Below are positions 12,698-55,729 of a stretch of DNA of 64,000 bases, in pieces (positions within the stretch are counted from its first letter, which is position 1; every line of letters begins with the position of its first letter). The notes under the pieces were generated by a model. That model did not search any database and was not told where the DNA came from. It saw only the letters and a list, made by a program, of their open reading frames with translations. The position numbers were made by a program, and so were the translations under genes. Source of the DNA: Squalus acanthias (taxonomy: Eukaryota); NCBI GenBank assembly GCA_030390025.1, contig CM059430.1, forward strand, positions 67,766,001-67,830,000, read 5' to 3'.

Positions 12698-15600
12698 GTA
12701 TTTTCTTTAGCTCGCTCTTTGTCTTTATGTTTCTCTCTCTCTCTCAGAATCTCTCTACGAGTTTTTTATAACTGTAATAAATGTTCATTTTCTTAATAGT
12801 TGCTGCCGATACTCCGTTTGAAGTAACCCAAGCCCCTGAAAATACCAATTCGGTCGCTGGTACAAACATTGTCTTCAATTGCACATTTCCTGTTTTGCAA
12901 GGCGATTCAGTTGTGAATATTTATTGGTGGAAACTTGGCGAAAATGAATTGATAAAACTAGGCTCAGACACCAGGAAACGATTTCTTACTGAGAAAGGAA
13001 GAGCCTCCTTCCAGCTCCGGAATATCAGTTTCCAGGACTCTGGAGTTTATCACTGCGGAGTGACACATCGGGGAAACAGGAAAGCAAATGGAAGCGGATC
13101 AAAGCTTGTCGTCAGTGGTAAGAACATTTTAAAGAGCGTATCGGCGGTATAGTCTCACAGTTATTCAAAATAAATAATGAGGTATGGCATGCCCCACTCT
13201 TCCTCGTGTTGCTTTAACATTTACATTAGAAATCAAAGGCTTCAATTATAGAGATTCTAGTTATAAAATACAACACATCTGTGTGCTTTTTAAAAACCAT
13301 TTTGACCGTTTTATTAATAATTAGTTTTGTTATGTCATGCTTGTAAGCTTGCGCAGGAAGCGTTGTCATGCCATACAGGTGCGAATACAAATTGTGATAA
13401 CTTGAAAGGTTTTCAGTATAAATAACATTTTGATTAGCCTTATTTGAATATATCCTGAACTGTTTAAAGCTGCAGGTAGATGACCATCTAAACTATCACA
13501 CTAAGCGTGATGTTATCGAGTATAAAGTCTAATTTCAATTATAACATGTACACAGAAGTTAATCCACGTGATTATTTTTAAATGTTGTGTCCCCGCTCTT
13601 GCTGCGATAAATAAGAAAGAACTTGTACTTATGTAGCGCAATTGGTGTCCCAAAGCGTTTTACAATGTAGTTGAAATGCTTTTGAAATGTAGTCACTGTT
13701 TAAATGTAGGAAAACGTGGCAGCCAATGTGCACATAGCAATGTCCGACAATGGGATAATGACTAGATCATTAATGATGGTGCTTGAAGGATAAATATTGG
13801 CCAGGACATCGGCACAATTTCCATGCACTTCTTCGAATAGTGCCGTGGGATATTTTATGTTCGCCTGAGAGGGCAGAGGGGCCGAGGTTTAATATCTTAT
13901 CCAAACATCCCTTCGACAGTGTAGCACTTCCTCCGTAATGCACTGAAGGGTCAGCCTTGATTATGCCCCGAAGTACCTGGAGTAGAGCTTAGAACTCAGG
14001 AATTTCTTACCAGGAGGCAAAAGTGCTACCACTGAGCCATGGCTGACACTGTGTTCTCTGAGAATGAGAGATCAGAGTATCGGAAGCCTGGGTGTTTTTC
14101 CTGTTCTTCAGTCAATAGCTTCTCTCAGCCTCTGGTCGACGAACCAAAGACTTTTTATCTCCTCAAATCCCTTCAAAAACGAATATGTCATCGATAAAGA
14201 ATGTCGTGAATTTGTCCCTGAGTTGTGCAAAATCCATTCGCCACAGTTCTTATTTTCCAGGTACAAAAGTTTCTCTCACGCTGATGTAACCCGTGAAGTG
14301 GAAGGTTCGCCTTTAGTTATTATCCCTGATTGTGATGTTGTACGTTTATTGTAAACCATACAAGTAATACGAATAAAAAACCCAATGGCTGGAAATATAA
14401 TTCATTTGGTGGACGGGGCTAATTGTGAAAAAATCAGTCTAAGATGCTATGCCGCCGCTGTTTATTTCTCGGGTTACCTCCGTAACAAGACGGGCGATGG
14501 GTGTGGGGATACTCTTCCTCTGCTCACTGTAGGTAGCGACAATGTGTGAGAGCAATCAGAAGGTTTCGTTGGGTCGGGAATAGTAGGCTTAGAAGGCCTT
14601 CACAAACGCACATTCTATTCGCTACAGAGACTGGAGAGCTGATTCAAAAACGCGTTCAAATTGTTCTCAATAACGAGGTAACACTGGAAAGTTCGGTTTC
14701 GAAGTTTTATAGAGGGAGCTATATAAATTGTGAGCATAATGGGCTATAGAACCAGAAGCAACATGAGGGGAAACATACGAAGCGAGTTGTTATGATCTGG
14801 AATGCACTGCCTGAAAGGGTGGACGAAACAGATTCAATAGCATCCTTCAAAATGGAATTGGTTAAATACTTGAAGGGGAACATTTGCAGGGTTATGCGGA
14901 AAGAGCAGTGGAGTGGGATTAATTGGACAGCACTTCCAAAGAGACGGCTCAAGCACGATGGGCTGAGTAGCCTCCATCTGTGCTGTACCCTTCTATGATT
15001 CTATAATCTACAATAATTAAAATGTAATGCTTTCGCTATACCATAAACATACAGATTTATACTTCTCTGATACGGTTGTAGCCGATCTGAAGTCGTATCT
15101 ATTCGACTTCAGAAATTCCAGAATAGACCAGATATTTAACTTTCTTCTTCGACCTGTCACCAGCTCCACCAATTCCCCTGAGGATTGTTTCCAACCCATC
15201 TGAAAGTAATGTATTCGGTTCTTTGGCTCTCGTGTGTGAAATGCCTTCATTTTACCCAGTGGGACTGGCTGTCACTTGGTACAAAAATAATCGACGCATT
15301 GAAACCGGAATACATACTACTAAACAGCTCAGCAGAGCCGGGATGTATGAAGCTTCCAGCTATTTTGAAGAGACACAGCCTGTCCAGGGAGGGACTGTTT
15401 ACGTCTGTTTGGTTTCTCACGTGACCCTCCAGTTTCCAGCTATGGCAATTTACTTGGTTCCAAATTCTAACCCAGGTAGGATGTCACTTTGCTTACAAAA
15501 CGAACGTCTGCCATTAATCTGTCAATGGTTATTTGCCAAACAGGGGAAGATTTCCTTTTTTGATTATTGAAAGGGAAACGTGTAAGAAATTTAGCTACAA

Positions 15601-18600
15601 ATAGGGAACAGTGGAAATTATTCACCATATGATATTTTTGTAAAATCCCATCAATATTAAAAATATTACAATTTAATGTTGATTTCCAGAGCAGTTAGAT
15701 TTCCAGTTTTTGACCTACAACCTCCTCCGGAATGCCTGCAATTGGGCGGAAATTTCAACTTTGGTGGGGCGTAAAACTGGCGGAAAAGGATCGGCCCCGT
15801 TATACACGCCGCCAGATTTTCCGTTCCATTTGTTTTTATACGCCTACTGAAGTTAAAAGTTCTCCCAATACACGTGCACCTCTTCAATTCAGTAAATATT
15901 GCAACCCGGAAAATAGTTCTGTCCAAAATTCTTCTTTTCACATCAGGCCATGTTTATTCATTAATATTGACTCTTCGTTCAAACTGCCCATCTCAAATCA
16001 AATAACCGCTGATTCAGCGCCACATGGTCGAAACGCTATGTAGCTTATTTTGTCCAATAACAAGTCCGTGCCGTGAATATTGAAATTCTTTACTCTGAAG
16101 TGCCAAATGAGGAAGAATTCCGCTGATCGCTCTTTGACAAATATATATATGAACATTTCCTGTGATCGCTATTGCTAGGGAAATGGGAAACATACAAAAC
16201 AAAGTTATGTTGGGTTCCGAATTCTAGCTGCATATTTATTCTTTTCTTCAAATAGTGGCAGTCATTTGGTTTGGAATGAATGGAGAGTTGATGAAACAAA
16301 GGGGCGGCGGGAGAAATTTCTGCAGAGAAATGCAACATGCCGAGACATACCTAACAGAGGATACCTTCGCAAAAGAAGTAACGACATAATCCCACATAGT
16401 GACGAGGGCAATTGTTAATTGAATTAATTAACTACTTAAAACTAAAAATTAAGTTTTATTCTTATCAATAGAAAATACTCTTATTCCGTAGAGTGAAAAA
16501 CAGATACAGAAACTAAAGATCGGTCAGCCTTCCAGAAACATAAAATAAACAGGGGGATAAAATTGATCTTCAGCGATAACGCAAAATGGCCGATAGCGAA
16601 TCAGCAGCCGGTTTTGCACTCCTCGCGCGATTTTCTGTTCTATTAGCCCGTTTTCCGCCGGGCGATAATGTCTCCCACCCGTTTCGTTTAGTTTTAAATA
16701 GGGATAAAACAACTTCCATCAGTTAACAATTTGAGTACCCATGCTCAATTGCTGTAAACAATTGTTCAAATATCAGGTTCCATTTAGGGCTCTGATTGCT
16801 GACGGCATCCTCAACAATGCACAGCTCCATATGTGAATGTTACTTTTATCTGGCAGGTAGTGACAGTACTTCGCCCTCGCCTTATTTACGGATCTTTGGA
16901 TGCGCAGGCTTTGCATTGACGTTTCTGGTGCTGGTGATTATCATTGGAATGTCGTTCAGATTCAGTAACTGTAAAGGTAAGTTATCACCAGATTATTTAA
17001 TTTAAATAAAAATTACAACGAATAGAAAATGCTAGTCAGCATGCAGAGAGGATTGTTCCACGCTATAGTTTACTGGTCAGAAGTTTTGTTGACGCGGGAA
17101 TTGAGCTCAGGTTGGTTGTTGAATTTTGAAATCGATCTGTGATCCTGAAATGCAGCATTTATCTTAGAATGGTATGAACATGAAGATGGATTATAGTCCC
17201 GCTGCGCTACCACCCCACCCCGATCCGAAAATCGTCTCTCTGATCTCCACATGTTTAAATATACTGGGGGATGAACATATCTGAAATTCTTCTCCCTTTT
17301 TTTAGGCAGAAGTGTCAGAGTGTTTATTTTTTGTGGAAAGCAATTTCGCATCATTATTGGTCAACAAGCATCCCACGGCGAAAATCTAGGTTGCGGAATG
17401 TTATGAATTTTTTCGACTTTGTCTCACTATAAATTGGGATCCGCCATACTTGCTGAATCATATCGTGCATCATTCACAATGAAGCTTTGAATGTTGTGTT
17501 TTACTAGGCAGGGAGAGAAAAGATGAAGAAATCAATTGTGTAAGTCTGTAAGTTTAAAACATTTATCTGATTGATGTTTTAAGTGTAATGTGATAATTTT
17601 CTGTTCTGTTGAGAACATTTCAAATCTATTTCAGACTACGATAACACGTTTCTGCACTTTGCCAGTTGGTTACATCAGACTGGGACATCAAAAACTGTCA
17701 ACATGCAGTACTCCCAAGTGAAAGTTGACGCAGAATTCGTACCGAAATCCATTGTCTAGGCACTAAATGCACTCAGTCTGCTCAGATCCTGGAGTAGCGT
17801 ACTTTTTTGTCAGTTACAATACCATGGTCAGGGGACGCTCCCAGTGTATGCCGACTCCGTGGCAGGGTCTAGTGCCCGGTTAGAAAGGGAGGAAATTTGA
17901 GTGAGGCCCCGGGCCGTAGGAGTCTGAAAGCAGCTGACATCAGCAGGCTCCCAAGCCCGGAAAATGGTTTAGTAACTTGGAAAAAGTATACAACTTCACT
18001 TTTAGCGTTCTGTTTGTTTTGATGCTACGCCTTTACCGGCCATCTAGACGGAGGAGAGCAGCCAGACACGGCGCAAATCTAACACAATCTTCATGTGACA
18101 TCACTGCATCTAGATATTGAAAATTCTTCGTTTTGAAAATGGGAGGGAGACCTGGAGCTCCCTCTCTCACCTAATTTACATGAATAGGTCGTGCTGCTGC
18201 TGCTGCTGTCCCTAGATCCCAGCGCAAAGTAATGGGGATCAGGCCCTGTATATTTGGTCATTGTCCCTATTTTCCTGACCAATGCGCCCAAGGACCGGTC
18301 ATTTCACCACGGCAAAAATCTGGAAAGTTAACCTTAAACAAAATTCCCAGCTTTGGGTGTTTTATTCTCAAACATCGATAACCTTTCTTCTGAGATTATT
18401 GGTGTAATGTTTCAATTAGCCACAGTTCTGCACCAGCAATTGTTTTCTGCTCACCCATCCAGGGCAAGTTGCCCACTACAGTTGGAAACCCAGCTTGGAT
18501 TTCTGCAAGGAAATTTTAAAAGGTTGGCCACGAAGATTTGCTGGAGCCAATGGCACAATAGTGAGTGGCCACAGAGTGCGCTGCACCAAATTAATTTGTT

Positions 18601-21600
18601 TGTGTTTTGGTTATGCATCATGTAAATGAGAGTTTTAAATTTATGCCCCAGGCTTTGGGTACTCAAAGTGGGTTGAGGCTGCGTCTTTGAGGCGGATGTA
18701 GTTTTTCAGAGATTTAGGGGGGAATTCAGTATCTTTGCGCCTCCCGTTAGCGACAGCAGATGGCGCTAATGGGGTGCTAGAGCATTATTACTGGGGCGAG
18801 GCAAATCCAGCTCCACACACAAAACCACCCCCCTCCCCCGCAGCGCCGGAACTAAAAGTTATTGCCGGGAACATCAACGCTAGATGGATTGTGATGCCAG
18901 TGAGTGTGCAACGCTCACTGACTTCACAATCTGCAAAATTGATTATCGCCACCGACCTTAGCACCTGGAGGATACAGCGACTGGGAGAGCTGTTGGGAAA
19001 CACCAGGAAGCTGGCTCCAAGAACGTTATTTAAAGCAATCATCACTGATGAGTCACAGCTGTAGGTTAGTGCAGTTTCCATGCTTTATTGACAGTTTCAC
19101 ATCGTGCGACAGTCTTATTCTGTGATTTCAAGGTTATTTAATGTAAAGGGTGTTGTCGCAACTAAAATGTAGCTACATTGATTCTTAAAAAAATAAAACT
19201 GCTACACTTGGTTACATTAATGGGGCTGTACTCGCAGTTGACCTCGCCCTCCAGGATCTATGGTGGAGGGAGAGGAGGCAGCGAGAAAGTCTGGAACATG
19301 TGGCCAGAGGGAAGAGGAGGGCCATCAGGGCTCAAAACAGGAGGCCTATCCATCTGAAGGTATTCCAAGATCACTTCTCCTAGCTCCAATTAAGTGAGGA
19401 GCAGTGTATTGGAAGGCTCCGCGTCCCCAAGGAGGAGGTCACAGAACTCTGCCACCCCAGAGCTCCAGCCTCAGATCAGGGTGACCACGGCTCCTTCAAT
19501 GGCCGCCAAGGTCACCATCAAACTCAATTTCTTCACCTGTGGGTCCTTCCAGTCTGCAACAGGAGACAAAACTAACATCGCGCATATTGCCATCCATCGC
19601 TGCATCCGGGACGTCACAGGGGCTCTCTACAGTAGGAGAAGGGACTACATAATCTTCCCCATCACCAGAGAGAAGCAGGAAGAGCGTGCATATGGCTTCA
19701 TCAGGAGAGTGGGATTCCCCATGGTGCAGTGCACCATTGACTGCACCCATGTGGCTTTGCAGACACAGCATAACAATCCTGAGATTTTCTGTAACCGCAA
19801 AGGCTACCACTCACTTAATGTGCAGTTGGTGCATGACCACAGACAGTGAATCCTCAATGTCAATGCCTGCTATCCTGGCAGCAGCCACAGTGCCTTCAAG
19901 CTGCACCAACATTCTTCCAGCCACCACATCAAGCTCACGGCTGGCTGGTCGGAGGCTCTGGCTATCCGCTCTCCACTGGGTTCATACTCCCGCTCCACAA
20001 CCCCAATACATACATACATAGATACATAGAAGACTCCTGCTCTGCACTCACATAATGAGAGCCGTGCTGCCACCAGGAACATAATCGAGCAGACCATCGG
20101 GGGCTCAAGGAACAGTTCTGCAGCCTTGACTGCTCGGGAGGAGCCCTCCAGTACTCGGCTGAGTGGGTGTTCCATTTTGTGGTGGTCTGCTGCATGCTCC
20201 ACAAATTGTCCGTCATGAAGGCTCAGCCCTGCCACTTTAGGAGGAGGAAGACGAGGACGAGGAGGAAGAGGAAGCCGAGGAGGAGGAGGAACAGGAGCGA
20301 CGGAGGAGGCAGCCACTCAATCGGCCTTCTGGAAGGGTGGTCTGTGACCACCTCATCAGAATGCAAATGAATTTAACACCAGATCCCCGTTGCTCAGCAC
20401 ACCCCCAACATTGAATTCCTGTTGCAGGCCATATCACAGCGCAAACCTGAAATGAGAGACACCACAAAAGAATCCAAACTGAATTAATAAATTTATCAAT
20501 AATTAGTGAACACATATTTACAACAAAATATTGGCCCTGATTTTCCGAATGGAGGCTTTCAGCGGGCGGATGCCTCCAATCAGAATAAAATCTATGAACC
20601 TACCTGCTGGTTTCATAGATCCCGAGGCTTCCGATCCTGGGTCTCTCCTGTTGAAATGCGCAGAGGCCCACGTATCCCAGGGGTGCATGCGGTTCCCAAT
20701 TGCCCCTGGGATCATGTGGGCCAGGCGAACCAATCAAAGAAGGGAATCCCCCTTCATACTTTTGACAGGTCTGTAGGGATAGAACTGTCAAAAATACGAA
20801 TGGGTATCACATTTTAAAACTCACTAAAACAGTAAATAAATTTAAAAATAACTACATAATTAAAATTAATTAAAATTTCATGTAATTAAGTTTTTTTTTA
20901 ATTAATTGTTTTGACCAAAAAATGTTTTTACGGGTTTAAAAATAAACTTACCTTTGTGAAGAGGATTTTTAATTTATAAATCAGTAATCAAATTAAAATT
21001 TTCTATTTTTCAGCTCTCTTAAGCTGGTAAAACCAGGCCTTATGTCTGCTTTTACCAGGCATAAGAATTCTATGGTATTTCAGTTGGCTGAAGTTGTGCA
21101 AAAAGCGCAACACTCCACCCGCAGAGGCACGTTTCCCGGGCAGGCGGATTCTTGACAGATCGCAAGTGCTGGTTTTCAGCGTATGCACGGGCGGCAGCAG
21201 TCTCGGCTGGTGGGATGACAGGCAGCAACAAGGGCAATGGCGAGTGGCAGTGGTGGGAGCAGGAATGCTGTCATCCTGAGACAGGACAGAAGGTTCCGCC
21301 TCCACTGACCGACTGCCACTCCTCTTGGGCAACACCTCAGCATCCTCAGCAATCTTTTGGAGCAGATTGCTGGCCTGCTGAGACACTGTGGAAGCTCCGG
21401 TTGACGGTGGTAGACCCAGCCACGATGGCAGCAGTCAGAGCTTGCGTGGCATCAAGCTGAGACTGAATGATAGCAGTCTGAGAAAGAAAAAAAGACTTGC
21501 ATTTCGATAGTCACTTTCACGTCAACTGGACATCTCAAAGCCCTTTTTTTTCCAACTAAGTACTTTTTGAAGTGTAGCTACTGTTGTAATATAAGAAATG

Positions 21601-24830: not shown

Positions 24831-26318
24831 GGCCCGGAATTTGGGGTCGGAGACGTACCTCCGGTGTACGCCTCCGAGCAGCTAAAAATATCCGCACATA
24901 TTTTCAGGGCCCCAGGCTGCTGAGACTTTGGATCCTGGGCCGAAAGGCGTAGACCTGTGGATATGACAAACGATCCCAGGGACACAGGCGGTTGTGTGCT
25001 TGTGGTCACGTGGGCCTGGTCGTCAAATCAGAAAGGAGAATTCCTAATATGCTTAAAGGATTCCATTTCCGTATGGAATCCCCAGAAACATATTGGGCCA
25101 GAAATTCAGCTTTCAGGCTTCCTGCAGGTGCAAGCATCGCGCGCGTACTTGCCCATCGTGCCTGCCGTTGTGCTTTGGGCCCACGAGGACTTTGGGTCAT
25201 GGGCCTCCTCCAGCTGCCGGCGCGCAATTCTTGTGTATCCCTGGGGCGCAGTTAGTTGGAAGCGTCCCCTGGGATCACGTGGGCCATGGAGAGCCAATCC
25301 TAGCAGGGCATTTTCATTCATAGATTTGACAGGAAGACCTGTCAAATCTATGCATAGAGATCGGCCCCAAAACTACACTTAAACTTCAAATAAATTTGAA
25401 AAAAATCATTACATTTTTAAAATAACTATAAGTTAAATAAATTAACTACCTTAAACAAAAATTTAAATTTCTGAAAAAGTTAATTATACTTTGTAACGGT
25501 GCTAAAAATAAACTTACCTTTCTTTAAAGTATCTAAAAAAGATAAATCTGTTGAAAATTTTTTAAATTGTAATTAATTAACCACTTACCTTGTTAAAAAC
25601 AGGCCTTGCACCTCCATTTTAAAAGCGCAGCTTCTTCATACTTACCTTCCCGGAGAAACCTGAAAGAAAATTGAAGTTCGCTGCATGCGCGCAGCCTCTC
25701 CCGCACACGCGTTCGACATCTGACCCCACCCTTCAGGGGAACAGAAGTTCCGGTTTCCCGCGCATGTGCAGTGCATGCAGGAAACCGACACTTCAGATGG
25801 CCTTACGAGTGAGTACACAACGCGTACTCACCCGACAACAGCCGAATTTCTGGCCCAATAGGAATTCCCAAATAATTAAATAATTTATACACCTAGAATA
25901 AAAATAAAGGTTCTCATTTTCAAATTAAATTGAAAGTCACATCAATAAAGCAAATACAATTTAACGTAATATTTTGAGAAATAATTTTAAACATGTTAAT
26001 CCCGGCCAAAATTTACATAATTATTAATTTTTAATTTAAGATTTATATTAAACCTTACGCTCGTGAAAACTGGCCCTATGTCTATTTTTACCAGGTGTAA
26101 GGTTTTCGTGGGCATTTGCTGGACAATAGTTGGGCTAATAGCCCAACTCTGCATAAGCGAAAGTGATTTTCTATTCGGTTCGGTAGATCTGTCAAGATAA
26201 ACCTAGGCAGATTCCAAAGTCCATGTTTTCGCGCATATGCAGCGCATGTGGAAACCCAGAAATAGCAGGGCCTTTCCGAAGGATAAAATTCCGTCAGCGG
26301 AACCTCAGAATCCGGGCC
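24831..26318 (+). mobile_element. GGCCC-ended MITE with a second family member nested inside
   Basis: TIRs GGCCCGGAATT / AATCCGGGCC. ATA TSD at 24828-30 and 26319-21. Confidence 0.8.
25095..25856 (+). mobile_element. GGGCC-ended MITE (762 bp), nested
   Basis: TIRs GGGCCAGAAATTC / GAATTTCTGGCCC. Same internal layout as copy A (GATCACGTG, AGCCAAT, hairpin, AT-rich core, 3x ACTTACCT, GC-rich hairpins). Confidence 0.85.
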
Positions 26319-28772: not shown

Positions 28773-29638
28773 GAAATAGGAGCAGGAGTAGGCCAAACAG
28801 CCCATCGAACATGCAATAAGTTCATAGCTGAAATTCTACGTCAACTCCACTCTCCCGCCCGATCCCCATATCCCTTGATTCCCTTAATGCCCAAAAATCT
28901 ATCGATCTCAGTCTTGATATACACATCGACTGAGAATCAACCGCCAGCTCGGGTAGAGAATTCCACAGATTCACAACCCTCTGAGTGAGGAATTTCTCCT
29001 CATCGCAGTCCTAAATAGCCGACTATTATTCAGAAATTATGATCCCTAGTTCTAGACTCTCCAGCCAGGGAAAACAATCTCTCAGCATCTACACTGTCAA
29101 GCCCTCTAAGAATTTTATACGTTTCAAAATAACTCCAGAGAATATAGACACATTCTGGTCAACCTTTCCACAGAGGACAGCACTCACATCCCAGGAATCA
29201 AGCTAGTGAACCTTTATTGCACCCTCTAAGGCAAGTATATCCTTCCTTAGGTAAGGAGACCAAAACTGTACACAGTACTCCAGGTCCGGTCTCACCAATG
29301 CCCTATAAAATTGGAGCAAGCCATCCTTACTTATATAATCCAGCCCACTTGCAAGAAAGCCGATCATACCATTTGCCAAAAATGACCTACTCTCTGTTGT
29401 CTGGCCGTTAACCAATCCTCAATCCATGGTAATTTCAAACCCCCAAATCCCATGAGCCTAATCTCGTGTAACAACCACTTGTGTGGCACCTTATCAAATG
29501 CCTTCAGGAAATCCAAATATACTGCACATACTGGTTTCCCCTTATCTACCCTGCTAGGTACACCCCAAAGGAAACTAATAGATTTGTCAAACACAGATTT
29601 CCTTTCGGAAAGTTGTGTTGACTCTGCATAATCATATT
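28773..29638 (-). mobile_element. CR1 fragment (outermost layer of the nest; continues at 37946-38540)
   Basis: YLDFLKAFDKVPH, RPDLEYC and 3'UTR. The sequence resumes colinearly after the MITE TSD at 37946. Confidence 0.85.
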
Positions 29639-30957
29639 GGCCAGTATTTTCCGATCGCAGTCCTCCCGCGGGCGGAGGCCTGCGATCGGTAAAAATCTGA
29701 ACCCTTCCCTGAGGGCACCCGGGACGCGCACAGTTCCGATGCTGGGCCTCACCAAGCTCCAAGTGCGCAGGGCCCAGGTATCCCAGAGGTGCATGTAGTT
29801 CGCACGTCCCTGGAATCACGTGGGCCATGGGGAGCCAATCACAGAAGGGAATCTCCCTTCATACATTTGACAGGATGACCTGTCAAATATATGAATGGAG
29901 ATCAATGAAAAAACATAGTAATACTTTAAAAATATATATGTTTTAAATCACATTTTTAAAATGACTGGAAATTACAATAAATTAAGTATTTTATTCAAAA
30001 AATGTATCTTTTCAAAACAATAATTAAAGTATTTTATGGGACTAAAAATAAACTTACCTTTTTTAAAGTATTTGTAAATGATAAATCAGTGAAAACATGT
30101 TTTTAAGCAGGCGTAAGAATTGTAAGGGTTTTCTGCGGGTGGAGGGTCTCCAAAAAGTGGAACTATTTGAACATAAGAACATAAGAACATAAGAAATAGG
30201 AGCAGGAGTAGGCCAATCGGCCCTCGAGCCTGCTCCGCCATTCAATAATATCATGGCTGATCTGATCCTAACCTCAAATCTAAAGAACACAAGAAGTAGG
30301 AGCAGGACCCGGCCACTCAGCTCCTGGGCCCGCTCCGCCACCCACAGGGCCCTGACCGATCCGAAATCAGCCTCATGTCCAATTTCCTGCCCACTCACCG
30401 TAACCCCTAATTCCCTTTACCTCTAGGAAACTATCTATTGCTGTTTTAAATTTATTTAATGATGTAGCTTCCACAGCTTCCTGGGGCAGCTAATTCCTCA
30501 GACCTACTACCCTCTGGGTGAAGAAGTTTCTCCTCATCTCAGTTCTGAAAGAGCAGCCCCTTATTCTAAGATTATGCCCCCTAGTTCTAGTTTCACCCAT
30601 CCTTGGGAACATCCTTATCGCATCCACCTGATCAAGCCCCTTCACAATCTTATATATTTCAATAAGATCGCCACTCATTCTTCTGAACTCCAATGAGTAG
30701 AGTCCCAATCTACTCAACCTCTCCTCATATGTCCACCCCCTCATCCCCGGGATTAACCGAGTTAACTTTCTTTGTACTGCCTCGAGAGCAAGTATGTATT
30801 TTCTTAAGTATGGACACCAAAACTGTATGCAGTATTCCAGGTGCGGTCTCAGCAATACCTCCCTGTTTTTATAATCTATCCCCCTAGCAATAAAAGCCAA
30901 CATTCCGTAGGTCTTCTTGATCACCTGCTGCACCTGCATACTAACTTTTTGATTTTA

Positions 30958-41965: not shown

Positions 41966-43121
41966 ATGGGGGCTGTACTGGTAGTCGACCTCGTCCTCCT
42001 GGATCTACTGGAGAGGGAGTGGTGGCAGCGAGAAAGATTGCAAGATGTGGCCAGAGGAAGGAGGAGGGCTATCAGGCCTCTCAACAAGAGGTCTTACCCT
42101 CGGAGGGGTATTCTAGAGAGCCCTTTTCCTACCTCCAAATAAGCGAGGAGCCATGCATTAGAAGGCCACACTTCAGGATGTGCTCACCAAACTCTGCTAT
42201 CTCCTGCAACCAGACCTCGAGCCTCAGTGGCAGCCAAGGTCACCGTCACCCTCAATTTGTTCACCAGCGGTTCCTTCCAGTCTGCAACAGAAGGTATCGC
42301 AAAAATCCATCCTTGCATTCGGGAGGTCACAGAGGCTCTCTACAGTACGAAAAGGGATTACATTTCCTTCCCCATCACCAGAGAGAAGCAGGATGAACGT
42401 GCATGTGGCTTTGCCTGGATAGCACCATTTACTGCATCCATGTGGCTTTGTGGGCACCGCATAACAACCCTTAGCTCTTCCATTACCGCAAAGGATACCA
42501 TTTATTTCATGTGCAGTTGGTGTGCGACCACAGACAGCGAATCCTCAATGTGAATGCCCGCTATCCTGGCAGCAGCCACAATGCCTTCATCCTTCGCCAG
42601 ACTGGTGTACCTGGTCACTTACAGCCGTCACATCAAGCTCATGGTTTGCTGGTCGGAGACAGGACTAATTGATCTCCACATGGCTCATGACTCCCCTCCG
42701 CAACCCCAACATTCCTGGCCAGCACTCATATAATGAGAGCTACGATGCCACCAGGAACATCAATGAGCAGACCATCGGGTTGCTCAAGCAATGGTTCCGA
42801 TGACTTGTCCACTTGGGACGAGCACTCCAGTACTCAGCTGAGTGGGTGTCCCATTTCGTTGTGGTCTGCTGCATGCTCCACAATTTGGCCATCATAAGGT
42901 CCCATCCCTTGCCACCAGGGATTGTGGGACCACCTCAGGAGGAAGACGTCGAGGAGGAGGATGATGAGGAAGAGGAAGTAGAGGAGGAGGAGGAGGAGGA
43001 GCAACAGGAAGATGAAGTGAAGGAGCAGGAGGAGGAACAGGACCGAGGGAGGAGGCAGCCACTCAATTGGCCTTCTGGAAGGGGAGTCCATGACCGCCTC
43101 AGAAGTCAGTGGTACCAATAA
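41966..43121 (+). pseudogene. Harbinger transposase pseudogene
   Basis: Multiple frameshifts and stops; colinear with the intact transposase. Confidence 0.85.
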
Positions 43122-46810: not shown

Positions 46811-47214
46811 AGGGGGAGAAATTCAGTATAGTCCCGTTTGGGGTGCTAAAACTTTAAGGGGAAAAATTAGGTCGCGCCCCGTTTGGGGCGCAAATATCGT
46901 CTGGATGCAAAAATTAGCGCCTGGCACTAATTATCGCCATTCACTGGAAACTTCACTTTTACCGCCCCGGGAGGTGAGTGGAGCGCTAAATCAGGCGCTG
47001 CACACCTGTCTTAAGGCGCAAAGGCCGAGCAGTGAGGCGCTAACTCAGCACGCGAGCGCAGCGCAGGTGCTGCCAGTTAGCGAGGGAACACAGACACACT
47101 GGCGCCAGCCAGTTCTTAAAGCGGGGGGGCCAACTTGCTCCCCAGCCACACCCTGCTCATTGTAGCCTTGAATCTCGGCCTGGAGAGACCTGTGAATCCA
47201 TTTTGCTGCCAACG

Positions 47215-49154
47215 ATGGAGAGGGTGAGAGAACGAGCTCAGCGCTTCACCGAGCGGGCCTTGGATGCTCTGGTTGGCACGGTGGAGCGCAGAAGATGTAT
47301 ACTCTTCCCTGAGAGTGGCAGGAGGCCTTTTCCACGCGAGTACAGAAAAGTGTGGAGGGAGGTGGCTCAGAGCGTCTCCTCCAGGAGCATGATGCCCAGG
47401 ACCCATGTTCAACGCCGCAAAAAGTTCAATGACCTCACTCGGGTCGTCAGGGTGAGTGGCTTTTTCTCAATACCTCTCCATCCCTCCATCTCAACCTCAC
47501 TCTATGGCCAGAGGGTCTTAAAACCCCAATGCACAACACTCATCCAACACCTATGGCCCTTTCATGAAACACACACACACATTCCACAATTTGCATACAG
47601 TAAGGGCTATTCACCTATGGGAGGCACATCAGGCAAGACCATGGCTGCATACAGTAAGGGCTATTCACCTATGGGACGCACATCAGGCAAGACCATGGCT
47701 GCATACAGTAAGGGCTATGCACCTATGGGACGCACATCAGGCAAGACCATGGCTGTATATTTACTCAGATGCTGTCCTTTTACTTGCAGGCCAAGCTGGC
47801 GCATAATAGGAGACAGCAGCAACAGACAGGTGGAGGGCGGCCTCAGCTGCAACCCCTCAGCGATCTTGAGGAGCGCGTCCACAGGATTGTGGCAAGCCGG
47901 GTGATCGGTCCCGCCGGCACTGGAGACGCCGACCCCGTTCTGGACAGCAATGGTAAGGTCATTACATTTTTGTCCTCTGTCCTTCCACTTGTCCCTCACA
48001 AGACCAGCCTTTGACACTTTCAATCCAACTTGCTAACTCGCTGCACTTATTCCTCCCTTACTGCCACCCTGTCCTCACGCTAAAGCCACTCTTGTACCTC
48101 CCTGCTTTCAGATGGTGATTCACCAGCTGAGAAGACGGGCCCTGAAGCTGCCAGTGGGAGTGAAGCTGCAGCCGAGGAGGAAGAGGAAGCCGGAGCATCA
48201 GCGCCACCCTCTCCCGAGGAAGCCCATGCCCACACTGGGAACACGCCTTCCCTGGAGGGGAGCAGGGAGGAAGGGTCTGATGAGGGTGAAGCTCCAGGAC
48301 CCAGCGGGCTGCAGCAACGCCATGGGGGTAGGGAAGAACGGGGGCCTTCTCCCCAGAGGGAGAGTATGCCAGCGACTCCTAATGCAATGGACACAGAGGA
48401 GGAGCGGCTGATCGCAGAAATGGACACCCAGGCGGTGGGCATGCACACTGAGCTCATGGGTGCATTGGGAAGGGTGCCCGAATGCATTGAGTTACTGGCA
48501 AGGAGTGTGGAACACTTCGCTGTAGCACAGGCGGATGCCACACTAACGTTTAGTGCTGCAATTCAGTCACTGACTGCCGTGATCTCATCTCTGACTTTTC
48601 TCATGCAGACTCAGATTGGGGCCACGCGAGCACTGACTGCTGCCAACCTCGATGGTTCGTTCACATGCCCCCGGGGCTCTCACCGCACCGCAGCAGGCCA
48701 GCAATCTGTGCTCCAGCAGATTGCTCCGGATGCTGAAGTGCTGCCCCGTGGGAGTGCCAGTGGGTCGGTCGAGCAGGGAGTTGCTGTCCTCTCTCACGAT
48801 GACAGCATTCCTGCTGCCAACACTGTCACTTCTCCACTGCAGTTGCCACCGCTTGTAGGACAGACTGCTGCCGCCCATGCAGAGTTGGTGCAGTCTGCAG
48901 CCGGGCCCTCCAGGCCCAGAATTGGTCGAGGCCGTCCTTCAGGGGCATCTGCAGTGTCAGGGTCGGACAATCAGCAGCCTTCCACCAGCCTTGCTGCAGC
49001 CACTGAGGTCCCATTACGGAGGAGCAGTAGGGTTAGAAGGGGGGAAGTGCGCAAGGGAAGAGATCACCCTCGAAGGGCAAAAAGTAGGAGGTGTGACCAA
49101 ATGCTGGTCATTTTTTTATTAAAGGCCGAGGTTCGTGGTCCAACTTTTGTCTAG
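47215..49154 (+). CDS. Harbinger Myb/SANT(trihelix)-like DNA-binding protein, copy 1; exons 47215-47451, 47790-47952, 48112-49154 (about 480 aa)
   Basis: Exon 1 RAQRFTERALDALV...VWREVAQSVS...RTHVQRRKKFNDLTRVVR is the Myb/SANT domain typical of Harbinger ORF2/NAIF1-like proteins. Exon 2 AKLAHNRRQQQQTGGG. Splice sites AGG|GTGAGT, TTGCAG|, G|GTAAG, TTTCAG| keep the frame open to TAG 49154. Confidence 0.85.
47593..47754 (+). repeat. 54-bp minisatellite x3 in intron 1 of the Harbinger Myb gene
   Basis: Unit GCATACAGTAAGGGCTATTCACCTATGGGAGGCACATCAGGCAAGACCATGGCT starts at 47593, 47647 and 47701. Only two units in copies 2 and 3. Confidence 0.92.
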
Positions 49155-49167
49155 TGTTTTGGACATT

Positions 49168-49908
49168 GGCCCAAAAATTCGTGAGGAAGCCTTCGTGCGA
49201 GGGTAAGGCTTCCCCGCGATCTCTCACTGCGCGTTGGCTTTTTCAGTTCCAGCTCGCACGAACTTGATGTTCTGGACAGCTGCTGTGCAGTGCATTCGTA
49301 TCCGACAGGCGTAGTTAATTCGTGCGAGCTGTGGGATCACGTGACTCAGTTAGAGCCAATGGCAGCACACCATCTTCCATTCATAACTTTCACATGAGTG
49401 CTGTGAAAGCTATGAATACTATAGCCCCCCAAAAGAACAGCTAAACCTCAATTAAATTTTAAAAAACCCATCACATTAATAAAATAAGTATAGTTAAATA
49501 AATTAAACATTTTAAATAAAAAATTAAATTTTTGAAAACATTTAAAATCTTTAAAAAAGTTATAAAAATAAACTTACCTGTCTTTAAAGTCTCTAAAAAA
49601 GATATACATGTAAAAAAAATTCAAAATACTACTTAATGCACTACTTACCTTGTTAAAAGTGGGTCTTACTCCTCCTTTTTTTATGTGTAAAATCTTCCAT
49701 ACTTACCTGCGCGTTGAAACCACGAAGTGCACTGCATGCGCGCAGCCTGTAGCGTGCACGTGGTTCACCTAGGAATCGCCCCCTTTTCCATTCACCAAGT
49801 GCCGGTTTTCAGCGCATGCGCAGTGCATGCAGAAAACCGGCAATTGGAGACAGAATATGCGAGAGTACACAGTGCGTACTCTCGCGTATCAACACAAATT
49901 TTTGGGCC
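49168..49908 (+). mobile_element. GGCCC-ended MITE, copy A (741 bp)
   Basis: TIRs GGCCCAAAAATT / AATTTTTGGGCC. Absent at the equivalent position of Harbinger copy 2 (GGAC-ATT-ATCTCC). Confidence 0.88.
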
Positions 49909-49911
49909 AAT

Positions 49912-50655
49912 GGGCCGAAAATTGATCCCGGGACGCGAGAGTACGCACTGCATACTCTCGCGTATTCCCACTCCAATTGCCGGTTTTCTGCATGCCCTGC
50001 GCATGCGCTGAAAACCGGCAATTGCTCTTCCGAAAAGGGGGCGGGGCCTGGCTGCATCGCGTGCGCGCTACAGGCTGCGCGCACGCTGTGCACTTCATGC
50101 TTTGGACGCGCAGGTAAGTAGGGAAGATTTTGGAAATGTAAAAAGGAGGAGTAAGACCCGCTTTTAAGAAGGTAAGTAGTGAATTAAGTATTTTTTTGAA
50201 TTTTTTTTTACAGGTATATCTTTTTTATAGACTTTAAAGACAGGTAAGTTTATTTTTACAACTTTTTAAAAGATTTTAAATTTTTTCAAAAATTTAATTT
50301 TTTATTTAAAATGGTTAATTTAATTAACTATACTTATTTTATTAATGTGATGGGTTTTTTTTTTAATTTAATTGAGGTTTAGCTGTTATTTTGGGGGGGT
50401 GTAAGATTCATAAGTCTCACAGCCATGCTGTGAGACTTATGAATGGAAGATGGTGTGCTGCCATTGGCTCTAACTGAGTCACGTGAACACCCAGCTCGCA
50501 CGAATTAACTACGCCGCTGGGATACGCAAGCCCAGCACAGCTGATGTCTGGAACATCAATTTCGTGCGAGCTGGATCAGAAAAAGCATAAGCGAGGTGAG
50601 ACATCGCGGGGAAGGCTTACCCCCGCGGGAACAGAGCGAGATCAATTTCTGGGCC
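49912..50655 (-). mobile_element. GGCCC-ended MITE, copy B (744 bp), inverted relative to copy A
   Basis: TIRs GGGCCGAAAATT / AATTTCTGGGCC. Its reverse complement aligns along copy A. ATT duplicated at 49165-67 and 50656-58; AAT spacer at 49909-11. Confidence 0.88.
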
Positions 50656-50890
50656 ATTATCTCCAGGTTGTGAGAACCAGTTATGTTAATGACTGTTTTT
50701 TTGTGTTTATTTCTATCAGTTTGTCATGAGGAAATGACACACACAGAGTTTGTAAAATTAATAAGTTTTTGTATTCAAAATATACATGTTTGGTGTTTGG
50801 AATCATTGGTGCCTTGGCCGGCTTAGGGGTTGCGTGCTGGGTTCATTGATGTTGTTAGCAATGGCAGAAGCCATTTCCACAGCAGGGGCC

Positions 50891-52051
50891 CTAGAAGCGG
50901 CTTGCTATCAGCCGTTGACGGACGGCCCTTGCAGTTTCACCATTGTGGGCCGCCCTCCCGCCTTGGTGCTGCTGATGATCATCCTCCTCGTTCTCTTCCT
51001 CCTCTTCCTCCTCCTCCTCTGGTGGTGCTCCAAGGCCTGGTGGCATTGGCTGGGTCCTGACGATTGCCATGTTATGCAACATGCAGCACACAACTACGAA
51101 GTTGGATACTCGCTCAGGCGAGTACTGCAGGGCTCCTCCAGAATGGTCGAGACAGCGGAACCGTTGCTTCAGCACGCCGATTGTGCGCTCAATGATGTTC
51201 CTGGTAGCTTGATGGCTCTCGTTGTACCGGAGCTCAGCAGGGGTGTTGGGCGTATGGAGCGGTGTCATCAGCCAGGTGCTCAATGGATACCCCTTGTCCC
51301 CGAGAAGCCAACCAACTGGCTGATGCGGTGCCTCGAAAAGTTCTGCCACAGTAGTCTGGCGCAGGATGAAAGCATCATGGCAGCTGCCAGGATAGTGGGC
51401 ATTGACAGCGAGTATCAGCTGTCTGTGGTCACAGACCAACTGAACATTCAAGGAATGGAACCCCTTTCTGTTCCGGAAATCCTCGGCATTCTCATGTGGA
51501 GCATGCAAAGCCACATGCGTGCAGTCAATGGCGCCCTGCACCATGGGGAAGCCCGCTATCCTCGCAAAGCCCAGAGCGCGGTCACGCTGCTTGTCTGGGG
51601 TCATGGGGAAAGACATGAACTCTCGTCTCCTTTTAAAGAGGGCATTTGTGACCTGCCGGATGCAGCAATGCACCGCGAACTGGGAGATATTGGCGAGGTC
51701 CCCAGCAGCAGCTTGAAATGAGCCAGTAGCATAGAAGTTGAGAGCCACTGTGACCTTCACTGCCACCGACAGAGACGTCCTGGACCTCAGTTGAGGCTGC
51801 AGATCTGGCTGCAGCAGGTGGCAGAGCTCAGTGACCACCTCCTTGCTGAATCGCAGCCTTCGCAAACACAGCTCCTCAGACATATGAATGTAGGAGAGCT
51901 GTTCACGATATACCCTGGGAGGGTAAGCTCTCCTGTACATACGCCTGTTGGCCCTCCTCCGTCTGGCCATCATTGCCACTCTCTCTCTGCATCTCTGTGT
52001 CCTCCGATTCAGCTGGAGCAGGACGACGCCCCCAATCAGTGCAGCCCCCAT
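50891..52051 (-). CDS. Harbinger DDE transposase (HARBI1-like family), copy 1, 386 aa from ATG 52051
   Basis: Uninterrupted ORF with GAIDCTHV, NRKGFHSLNVQLVCD, YPGSCHDAFI, LLGDKGYP and RNIIERTIGVLKQRFRCL motifs (D-D-E triad), plus an acidic C-terminal tail. Confidence 0.95.
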   Translation of the reverse strand: MGAALIGGVVLLQLNRRTQRCRERVAMMARRRRANRRMYRRAYPPRVYREQLSYIHMSEELCLRRLRFSKEVVTELCHLLQPDLQPQLRSRTSLSVAVKVTVALNFYATGSFQAAAGDLANISQFAVHCCIRQVTNALFKRRREFMSFPMTPDKQRDRALGFARIAGFPMVQGAIDCTHVALHAPHENAEDFRNRKGFHSLNVQLVCDHRQLILAVNAHYPGSCHDAFILRQTTVAELFEAPHQPVGWLLGDKGYPLSTWLMTPLHTPNTPAELRYNESHQATRNIIERTIGVLKQRFRCLDHSGGALQYSPERVSNFVVVCCMLHNMAIVRTQPMPPGLGAPPEEEEEEEEENEEDDHQQHQGGRAAHNGETARAVRQRLIASRF

Positions 52052-53607
52052 AGTCTCTTTGCAAGCAAAGTTATGAAGGACAGCAACCAAACTACCAGCG
52101 AAGTTAGGATCAGTAGGCAAAACTACCTCACAAAGCGTTGACTCAATGCAGAAGTCTCTCTTTCTCTCTCTCCGAATCTCTCTCTCTCTCTCAGAACGAG
52201 TGGTGCAAAAATGTCAACCACAGAAAAAGACAGGAAGAGGCCCCCTTTAAATAGCGCCCCCCCAGCCCCACAGCGATTGATAGCGTTCCAGTCTTCCGGT
52301 CGTTGGATGCGCCAGGCGGTAAGGCAGGGGGCGCCACTCAATTTCCGCTCCGGGGCGCCACAAGGGTGTTGCACCATGGAATGACGTCACAATCTGCGCG
52401 CACAGGTGGTCGCGGTGGTAAAGTTTAGCGCCGCCGCACAATGTCTAGTTAAGTTCCCGAGCGGCGCAAACATCGCTGCGCCTGGGCGCTAGCGGCTTTG
52501 CGCCCCATTAGCACACTCTTAAGGCGCTAAGGGGAGGCACAACCAACTGAATTTTCCCCCCTAAAAGTTGAAGAATTAGCGCCAGGCAGTAATCATTGTT
52601 GACTCCCGTGAAACTCATTGTTGGCGCTCCAAGAGGGAAGTGGAGCTCTAAATCAAGCGCTACACTCCTAATTTAAGATTCTATCCTCTGAGAGTGGCGC
52701 GCTACCGGCAGAGCGATAAAGAAGGTCATGTGCTGTCCAACCAGCACTCTTTAATCACAGAGTCCGCTTTCATCTCTTAAAGGGAAGGGCCAATCACTCT
52801 GTATAACCTCATAGTCATCAGTGGTGTTTTTCACTGCGACCTGGGCGACTGCCATTGCTGCCCCCATCACTTTCAGAAAGTGCAGCATTTGGCGATGTTT
52901 GAAGAACAGGTGTAAAAGATTTTGTGCAAGCAGCAGATTGGTGCAAGTAATAAACGGTGCGATCACTGAAAGGGTCTTTCTCGCGATGTTCCAGCGACAC
53001 GGAAGCATTCCCTTTTATTACTGCTCCTGCAGCACACTTCTGATGCACAACGCTTCCTCCTACTTGCGTTGTTAGTGCGATGAGCTAAAGCAGGGGGCAA
53101 AAGGCAATTTTGCATCGTGGCCATTAACAGGGCATTGCACATGCATTGACGTCAACATATGAGCGGCGCTAGACGCCTAGGTGCTAATTCACCACTAACG
53201 GTCATGTGCAGCGTTGTTTTCACCGCAGCTGGTAGTTAAACCCTTAGGGGGGAAAATTAGGTCGCGCCCCATTTGGGGCGCAAATATCGTCTGGACGCAA
53301 AAATTAGCGCCTGCCGATAATTATCGCCACTGACTGGAAACTTCACTTTTACCGCCCCGGGAGGAGAGTGGAGCGCTAAATCAGGCGCTGCACACCTGTC
53401 TTAAGACGCAAAGGCCGAGCAGTGAGAAGCTAACTCAGCACGCGAGCGCAGCGCAGGTGCTGCCAGTTAGCGAGGGAACACAGGCACACTGGCGCCGGTC
53501 AGTTCTTAAAAGTGGGGGGGGGGCAACTTGCTCCCCAGCCAAACCCTGCTCATTGCAGCCTTGAATCACGGCCTGGAGAGACCTGTGAATCCATTTTGCT
53601 GCCAAGG

Positions 53608-55417: not shown

Positions 55418-55729
55418 GAGGTGTGCCAAAATGCTGGTCATTTTTTTATTAAAGGCCGAGGTTCGTGGTCCAACTTTTGTCTAGTGTTTTGGACATTATC
55501 TCCAGATTGTGAGAACCAGTTATGTTAATGACTGTTTTTTTGTGTTTATTTCTATCAGTTTGTCATGAGGAAATGACACACACAGAGTTTGTAAAATTAA
55601 TAAGTTTTTGTATTCAAAATATACATGTTTGGTGTTTGGAATCATTGGTGCCTTGGCCGGCTTAGGGGTTGCGTGCTGGGTTCATTGATGTTGTTAGCAA
55701 TGGCAGAAGCCATTTCCACAGCAGGGGCC

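Follow-up and report, generated by a model that had tools for sequence, protein, structure and literature searches.

Stacked same-strand 5' splice-site motifs in the core of an abundant non-autonomous Harbinger element of Squalus acanthias

A Harbinger-dense locus and its 744-bp elements

The window analyzed here, a 64-kb stretch of the 3.7-Gb genome of the shark Squalus acanthias (G000:C6:67766001-67830000), is dense in Harbinger transposons, and a first look across the whole genome returned 58,163 Myb-like and 63,886 transposase domain candidates. Two sister elements, copies A and B, were inserted between the convergent genes of a host Harbinger of another family, and a sister copy of this host retains the empty insertion site, a single ATT, near 55491-55497. 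The elements of the window and the features of copy B are given below; a caret marks the exon-intron boundary of a putative donor, and the names CCAAT, E-box, TATA-like and GT box are labels that we assume for the motifs concerned.

46813..52562: autonomous-type Harbinger of another family, host of the A-B pair; Myb-like ORF on the plus strand, transposase (52051-50894) on the minus strand
49912..50655, plus: copy B, 744-bp non-autonomous Harbinger with GGGCC..GGCCC terminal repeats, AAT on its left, ATT on its right, and ends matching autonomous partners
49168..49908, minus: copy A, inverted sister of B, head to head with it and ~86% identical
49701-49709, 49643-49651 and 49572-49580, minus: donor-like sites of copy A
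25095..25856, minus: full-length copy of another subfamily, with three donor-like sites
29634..30106, minus: truncated copy of a distant lineage, with donor 3 only
20526..21191, minus: copy of a distant lineage, with donor 3 and a CAG^GTAGGT site near the right end
49912..50170, plus: left end of B, homologous to the transposase-side end of autonomous Harbingers (profile match to about position 260)
49933..49963, no strand: subterminal palindrome GCGAGAGTA..TACTCTCGC, whose arms co-vary between lineages
49998..50008, no strand: TGCGCATGCGC, which we take to be an NRF1-like motif, invariant on internal branches
50111..50119, plus: donor 1, CAG^GTAAGT; GT^GTAAGC/A or CGG^GTAAGT at the homologous partner site, absent from distant lineages
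50169..50177, plus: donor 2, AAG^GTAAGT; in 45/45 near-full copies, distant lineages reading CAGC/CAGG^ATAAGA
50195..50213, plus: acceptor-like site, a T-tract and CAG, counted as a fourth donor in the original prediction
50241..50257, plus: donor 3, MAG^GTAAGT followed by TTATTTTTA, the deepest-kept donor
50406..50444, no strand: palindrome of 39 bp with inner arms that co-vary between lineages
50463..50485, no strand: CCAAT box (ATTGG, 50463-50467) and E-box (CACGTG, 50480-50485)
50616..50655, plus: right end, matching the Myb side of the partners at 85-100% identity

The 744-bp element is a non-autonomous Harbinger derivative. [quoted passage not shown] The family is dispersed at high copy number (~24 copies per Mb): 19 core matches were found in 0.8 Mb of random DNA and 14 in 0.6 Mb of dynein genes, which extrapolates to ~88,000 copies genome-wide. 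Both outer flanks of the A-B pair are ATT and the spacer between the copies is AAT, one letter off, which a single mutation or else a composite move would explain. Copies arranged head to head or in tandem recur in the family (window 49165-50658; L013 665-2076; L012). Derivation of the A-B pair from its host Harbinger (46813..52562) is unsupported; the ends of the host differ. The element thus has the general build of the Tourist-like PIF/Harbinger MITEs, such as rice mPing, from Ping/Pong, and zebrafish Harbinger3N_DR, which are described as short and non-coding, with terminal inverted repeats, a 3-bp target duplication and ends shared with an autonomous element whose products are a transposase and a Myb-like protein (PMC2836001).

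The subterminal palindrome at 49933..49963 is likely a site for the Myb-like protein. In the right half, the 39-bp palindrome adjoins the CCAAT box and E-box, with TTCATA..TATGAA on the outside and differing paired sequences on the inside; it may form a cruciform or an RNA stem, or serve as a dimer site. A protected, CpG-island-like promoter was considered and rejected: CpG transitions run at 3.0-3.7 times the non-CpG rate in the MITE and at 2.3-4.8 times in other repeats, so the MITE copies have not been kept unmethylated. At the right end of B-like copies the ratio is 1.5, on 4 events.

No host exon near copy B came to light in a Pfam scan that took in 60 of the 124 candidate frames from non-repeat DNA. 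Elsewhere in the window an immunoglobulin-superfamily gene lies on the plus strand (12781-13149, 15127-15567 and 16796-17002), with V-set and C1-set frames and a hydrophobic, membrane-like frame that ends near an AAG^GTAAGT at 16974.

The donor motifs and their conservation

The original prediction, made from the window alone, placed four 5' splice-site motifs in copy B, namely CAG^GTAAGT at 50111, AAG^GTAAGT at 50169, CAG^GTATAT at 50211 and CAG^GTAAGT at 50241, and their reverse complements in copy A. All of these sequences are present, those of copy A ending at 49709, 49651 and 49580, and the asserted identity of 49699-49709 (ATACTTACCTG) with the start of U1 snRNA holds for the 5' end of one of this genome's U1 genes. 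The more distant copies also carry the sites ascribed to them: three in the 25095 copy (25512-25519, 25583-25590 and 25640-25647) and one each in the 20533 and 29639 copies (20946-20953 and 30052-30059). U1 snRNA genes form a tandem array of at least 42, many ~3.4 kb apart, at G000:C16:12.10-12.36 Mb.

Donors 1, 2 and 3 begin at element positions 200, 258 and 330 of 744, and in copies A and B they match the U1 5' end of this organism at 9-11 of 11 positions. Shuffling 50100-50260 yielded two or more MAG^GTRAGT motifs in 0 of 20,000 trials, and a single one in 105, so the cluster is not a chance product. Throughout 80 random 10-kb stretches AGGTAAGT was seen 113 times against 18 expected (6.3x the order-3 expectation), with the 24 one-letter variants tested at 0.6-2.4x. 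Every one of 45 near-full copies has at least one AGGTRAGT, and the 115 instances all lie on one strand, with 0 on the other.

The motif at 50211 we reject as a donor. Across the 45 copies it reads CAG^GTATAT in 22, CAG^GTTTAT in 19, CAG^ATTTAT in 2, CAG^TTTTAT in 1 and CAT^GTATAT in 1 (copy A); because its AG follows a T-tract and is kept in 44 of 45 copies, while the donor tail is unstable, the site fits an acceptor better. This reassignment also qualifies the claim that the motifs are spaced too closely for introns, which is correct from donor to donor but does not extend to donor 1 and the AG at 50212-50213. These two would bound an ordinary 100-nt intron, leaving a 30-nt exon-like piece that ends at donor 3.

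We measured conservation on a phylogeny of 45 near-full copies, which remained of 47 after a distant hit and a tandem duplicate had been removed. The sample is partly biased: a query that included the donors yielded 29 of the copies, random DNA another 13 and the window the last 3. The GGTAAG cores of the three donors, 18 columns in all, underwent 0 changes on internal branches, against 0.65 changes per comparison column locally and 0.90 overall; three invariant 6-column windows would arise by chance with p ~0.002-0.008. On terminal branches the donor cores changed 5 times against 12 expected (p=0.02). The expectation that motifs would outlast their flanks is therefore borne out for most flanking columns, but parts of the flanks are conserved too, and the AT-rich surroundings do not simply diverge as had been described: AGGTAAGTTTATTTTTA, TATCTTTTTTA and ACTTTAAAGA are invariant on internal branches. 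Fully 6% of all 8-nt windows are as invariant as the donors, among them the subterminal palindrome, GCATGCGC, the CCAAT box, the E-box and AT-rich blocks beside donor 3, and between positions 200 and 480 internal branches show no change at 68% of the columns.

A wider set of 39 copies, chosen for covering the right half and spanning 13 clades up to 54% apart, reveals a deeper pattern of persistence and turnover. Donor 3 is perfect in 32 of these copies, altered in 3 and missing from 4, of which two are truncated, one has a deletion and one is a remote outlier. Donor 3 is outranked by the windows of the CCAAT box and the E-box, the latter being the best-kept motif scored across the 13 clades. 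Donors 1 and 2 are confined to four near clades. Of the 39 copies, 24 have an additional AG^GTA site on the same strand, placed 55-75 nt from the right end, which A and B lack; the lineages without donors 1 and 2 mostly carry it, and this right-end terminal donor of other lineages faces outward. Donors 1 and 2 and this fourth donor thus come and go between lineages, and donor 3 persists. We conclude that the donor motifs have been under purifying selection, as judged in a partly biased sample with conserved flanks.

Autonomous partners and the origin of the motifs

A transposase search returned young elements whose ends match those of the MITE family. Among 12 such partner loci, 10 carry both genes by tblastn, a DDE_Tnp_4 transposase that reads inward from the left and a Myb-like protein gene that reads inward from the right, and the eight partners that could be delimited are 4.5-4.7 kb long and share their ends with the MITE. 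Positions 1-112 of copy B are 85-92% identical to most partners and positions 705-744 are 85-100% identical; other MITE subfamilies match other partners over ~250 bp. Homology to the transposase-side end of the partner identifies the left 260 bp of the MITE as a transposase promoter and leader end. The right half, with its palindrome, CCAAT box and E-box, has no good match in the partners, and a search with the Myb domain returned other Harbinger families, the partner's end not being among them. A simple deletion MITE would differ from the shark element, in which only ~260 bp on the left and 40-100 bp on the right match partners well; the core, with its stacked donors, palindrome, CCAAT box and E-box, forms a separate, older lineage.

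The young autonomous family (L171-L182; for example, L176 1189-5786) has open transposase frames of 384-392 aa. The ends of the MITE subfamilies correspond to different partner subfamilies while the older core is common to them, which suggests end exchange or co-evolution.

The partner leader carries a donor of its own. In 28 scorable partner copies of 30, a GT donor stands at site A or B in 27 (A only in 23, B only in 2, both in 2), and the 8-19 ATGs between site A and the start codon point to a leader intron that would be spliced in the partners. Tandem GTAAGT/GTATGT repeats occur in L171-L178, ~570-620 nt from the left end and directly before a conserved TGTTACAG in the transposase leader; they are reminiscent of the pseudo-5' splice sites of the P element. 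The donors of the MITE could be functionless relics of the parent leader intron, embedded in a constrained AT-rich core or homogenised between copies. The leader donors of the partners and the extensive invariance of the 200-480 region both speak for this, as do the lack of orientation bias and of depletion in genes reported below. Three observations nevertheless make it unlikely. Pairing of donor 1 with U1 averages 9.6 of 11 in the MITE, against 6.0 at the homologous position in most copies of the partners and 8.5 in two; donor 2, although fixed in the near copies, is missing in distant lineages; and the full consensus recurs in several unrelated families of repeats. Homology of donors 2 and 3 to the partner leader, which counts against the reading favored below, is weak and ambiguous, with p of 0.003-0.08 against local shuffles (6 of 8 under 0.05) and two different alignments.

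The recurrence in other families emerged from 1.4 Mb of sampled DNA clustered by flanks. Repeat-borne GGTAAG extends to A-GGTAAG-T at 12 of 36 sites. Among 17 control hexamers the corresponding figure is 31 of 451 (p=1e-5); GGTGAG (6 of 65) was excluded from that pool. Without the three sites of the MITE family the count is 9 of 33 (p=6e-4), and by our count from the listing position -3 is A or C in 11 of the 12 extended sites. These 12 derive from about six families, so the p-values overstate their independence.

Two other groups of Harbinger elements deserve description in their own right. A MITE family with GGGCTGGATTTT ends (L074 2234-3080, L065 1250-2095, L086, L108) has one donor facing 3-4 GTAAGT/GTGAGT sites on the opposite strand, a cluster that resembles the CA-rich first intron of Myb-like genes; such opposite-facing clusters may be by-products of that intron. 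Other Harbinger families (L056, L065 and one upstream of window position 42124) carry CAG^GTTAG ~25-30 nt after TTTAAAGGG or TTTAAA, a presumably TATA-like run upstream of their transposase.

An alternative of a different kind is that the GGTAAG motifs are DNA-binding sites for the Myb/SANT-like protein of the partner or for a host factor, their likeness to U1 sites being coincidental. Harbinger ends are described as bound by a Myb-like protein (PMC2836001). Here, an outward-facing right-end site reads GCGGTA(T/G) in 8 of 8 partners, GCGGTAA is repeated in the end of the host Harbinger family, and the left palindrome is GGGTGAGTAC in some lineages. Trihelix-type GT boxes, moreover, resemble GGTAA. 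We regard this as rather unlikely all the same. The 115 sites all face one way, whereas the palindromic sites of the element are inverted pairs; the extension beyond the core (A at -2, A or C at -3, T at +6) is that of the U1 complement; donors 2 and 3 lie more than 250 bp inside the element; and the candidate binding motifs, that of MSANTD3 among them, were not found in the literature searched.

Candidate roles for the donors

The original prediction named a splice trap, a polyA suppressor and a first-exon donor as roles. At the level of the host, with selection acting through it, U1 at the donors would guard against premature polyadenylation and so make insertions tolerable to host genes, or the element would serve these genes as a splice trap or as a first exon that is portable. 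U1 telescripting is presented as an established process (PMC10228655), AATAAA/ATTAAA occurs 0.3 times per copy on the donor strand and 5.0 times on the other, and the shortfall of terminal-branch changes in the donor cores would also fit. The asymmetry of polyadenylation signals is, however, a chance outcome of a T-rich strand (P=0.72 and 0.40), and we reject a designed U1/poly(A) strand asymmetry, which base composition explains; signals that lie on the strand without donors could not, in any case, be shielded by them. The orientation of intronic copies, a test that the original prediction set, was scored in eight dynein heavy-chain genes, sampled as 60 stretches that total 600 kb; the direction of each gene was taken from its N- and C-terminal domains. 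The copies divide 7 sense to 7 antisense, a small, deep-intronic sample whose 95% interval of 23-77% sense leaves room for a mild orientation bias, and their density (23.3 versus 23.8 copies per Mb) is that of random DNA. Orientation bias in mammals is described as strongest near exons (PMC3088655), and the dynein sample is deep intronic. Taken together, these results tell against a splice trap or poly(A) suppressor that serves host genes, and we consider selection through the host quite improbable.

In the dynein gene set, two very long heavy-chain spans (G000:C9:136.4-137.8 Mb and 138.3-139.6 Mb) are adjacent and have near-identical scores, and N-terminal exons are repeated on C15 and on small contigs; this is either duplication or assembly redundancy.

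The suggestion that the opposite strand makes an RNA mimicking the U1 5' arm draws on the exact match of copy A to the first 11 nt of this genome's U1. Any perfect donor yields the same match on its other strand, though, positions +7 and +8 vary freely, and the 11-nt identity at donor 1 is found in just 4 of the 45 copies; such a mimic is very improbable.

The reading that we favor, with a probability of roughly one half, is that the three same-strand donors, kept through the diversification of the family, bind U1 on RNA from a promoter at the left end of the element. Under this proposal, the left-end 260 bp would be an active promoter; U1 bound near it would favor transcription of the element or access to it, and better access would promote mobilization by the proteins of the partner. 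The stacked donors would have arisen by gain and loss on the background of the partner leader, and the benefit would be the element's own, not that of a host gene. We favor benefit to the element because the motifs are selected, strand specific and U1-like, without sign of selection at the level of the host; their cores were spared on the lineages that kept transposing. The part of the original prediction that saw U1 sites or first-exon donors here thus appears to be its best one: the motifs lie on one strand, show a 9-nt donor consensus that includes A or C at -3, and are better kept than most of their flanks. A TATA-like run (our label) at about position 232, which would place the start site on donor 2, counts against this account.

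Reads were sought on the first 359 nt of copy B in four runs. Two runs whose kind was guessed yielded 378 and 205 contigs, and their depths, near 10^4, look like those of DNA; in these DNA-like runs the same 359 nt contained no joint at any donor and one joint elsewhere (49973-50019, CA..GG), and none of the 12 loose read ends among those listed falls at a donor. Two runs on record as RNA placed no reads on the same 359 nt. These reads weigh neither for nor against use of the donors.

Several known systems resemble parts of this arrangement. Promoter-proximal U1 binding is described as raising transcription without full splicing, and the likeness lies in promoter-like motifs with strong one-strand donors within 100-250 bp; the described effect concerns host genes, and the one proposed here would concern a transposon (PMC10228655). 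The exonic splicing silencer of the P element is likewise a case of clustered pseudo-5' splice sites in a DNA transposon, bound by U1 without splicing, but that element is coding and its sites exert control over a transposase-gene intron, and the shark element is non-coding, with near-perfect, putative U1 sites (PMC7776569). Xenopus Harbinger, hAT and Kolobok MITE enhancers are also vertebrate MITEs with transcription-factor motifs, NRF in a Harbinger MITE among them; that work concerns domesticated copies at open chromatin, and its available portion does not treat donors (PMC12676858). Introners and SOS splicing are a further meeting of DNA transposons with RNA splicing, in which the element is removed at or near its ends, whereas the donors described here lie 200-330 bp inside (PMC12779559). 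Splicing from the MITE donors would leave most of the element in place, unlike that of an introner, and we reject an introner identity, since an introner would have its donor and acceptor at opposite termini and the donors here start at 200, 258 and 330.

The available text of PMC2836001 does not describe splice donors for MITEs of the mPing/Harbinger3N_DR type, and titles and the opening lines of abstracts disclosed no paper on donor clusters in vertebrate Harbinger MITEs, although the family may already be catalogued. The kind of element is already known; the variant is a set of conserved, turning-over, stacked donors in a non-coding core.

MITEs are expected to require just their ends. We tentatively propose, as a doubtful generalization, that non-coding Harbinger elements evolve stacked same-strand 5' splice sites because these promote, in cis, the transposition of the element itself: recruitment of U1 beside the terminal promoter would turn a copy into a better substrate for the proteins of the partner. 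If true, an RNA-level selective force would act on an element that moves as DNA, and the genome would have been seeded with tens of thousands of ready promoter-plus-donor cassettes. If the donors are mere relics, the element would be an ordinary derivative of Harbinger in which the remnant of the leader is unusually tidy; if the deep internal donors are selected, splicing factors would shape which non-coding DNA transposons amplify.
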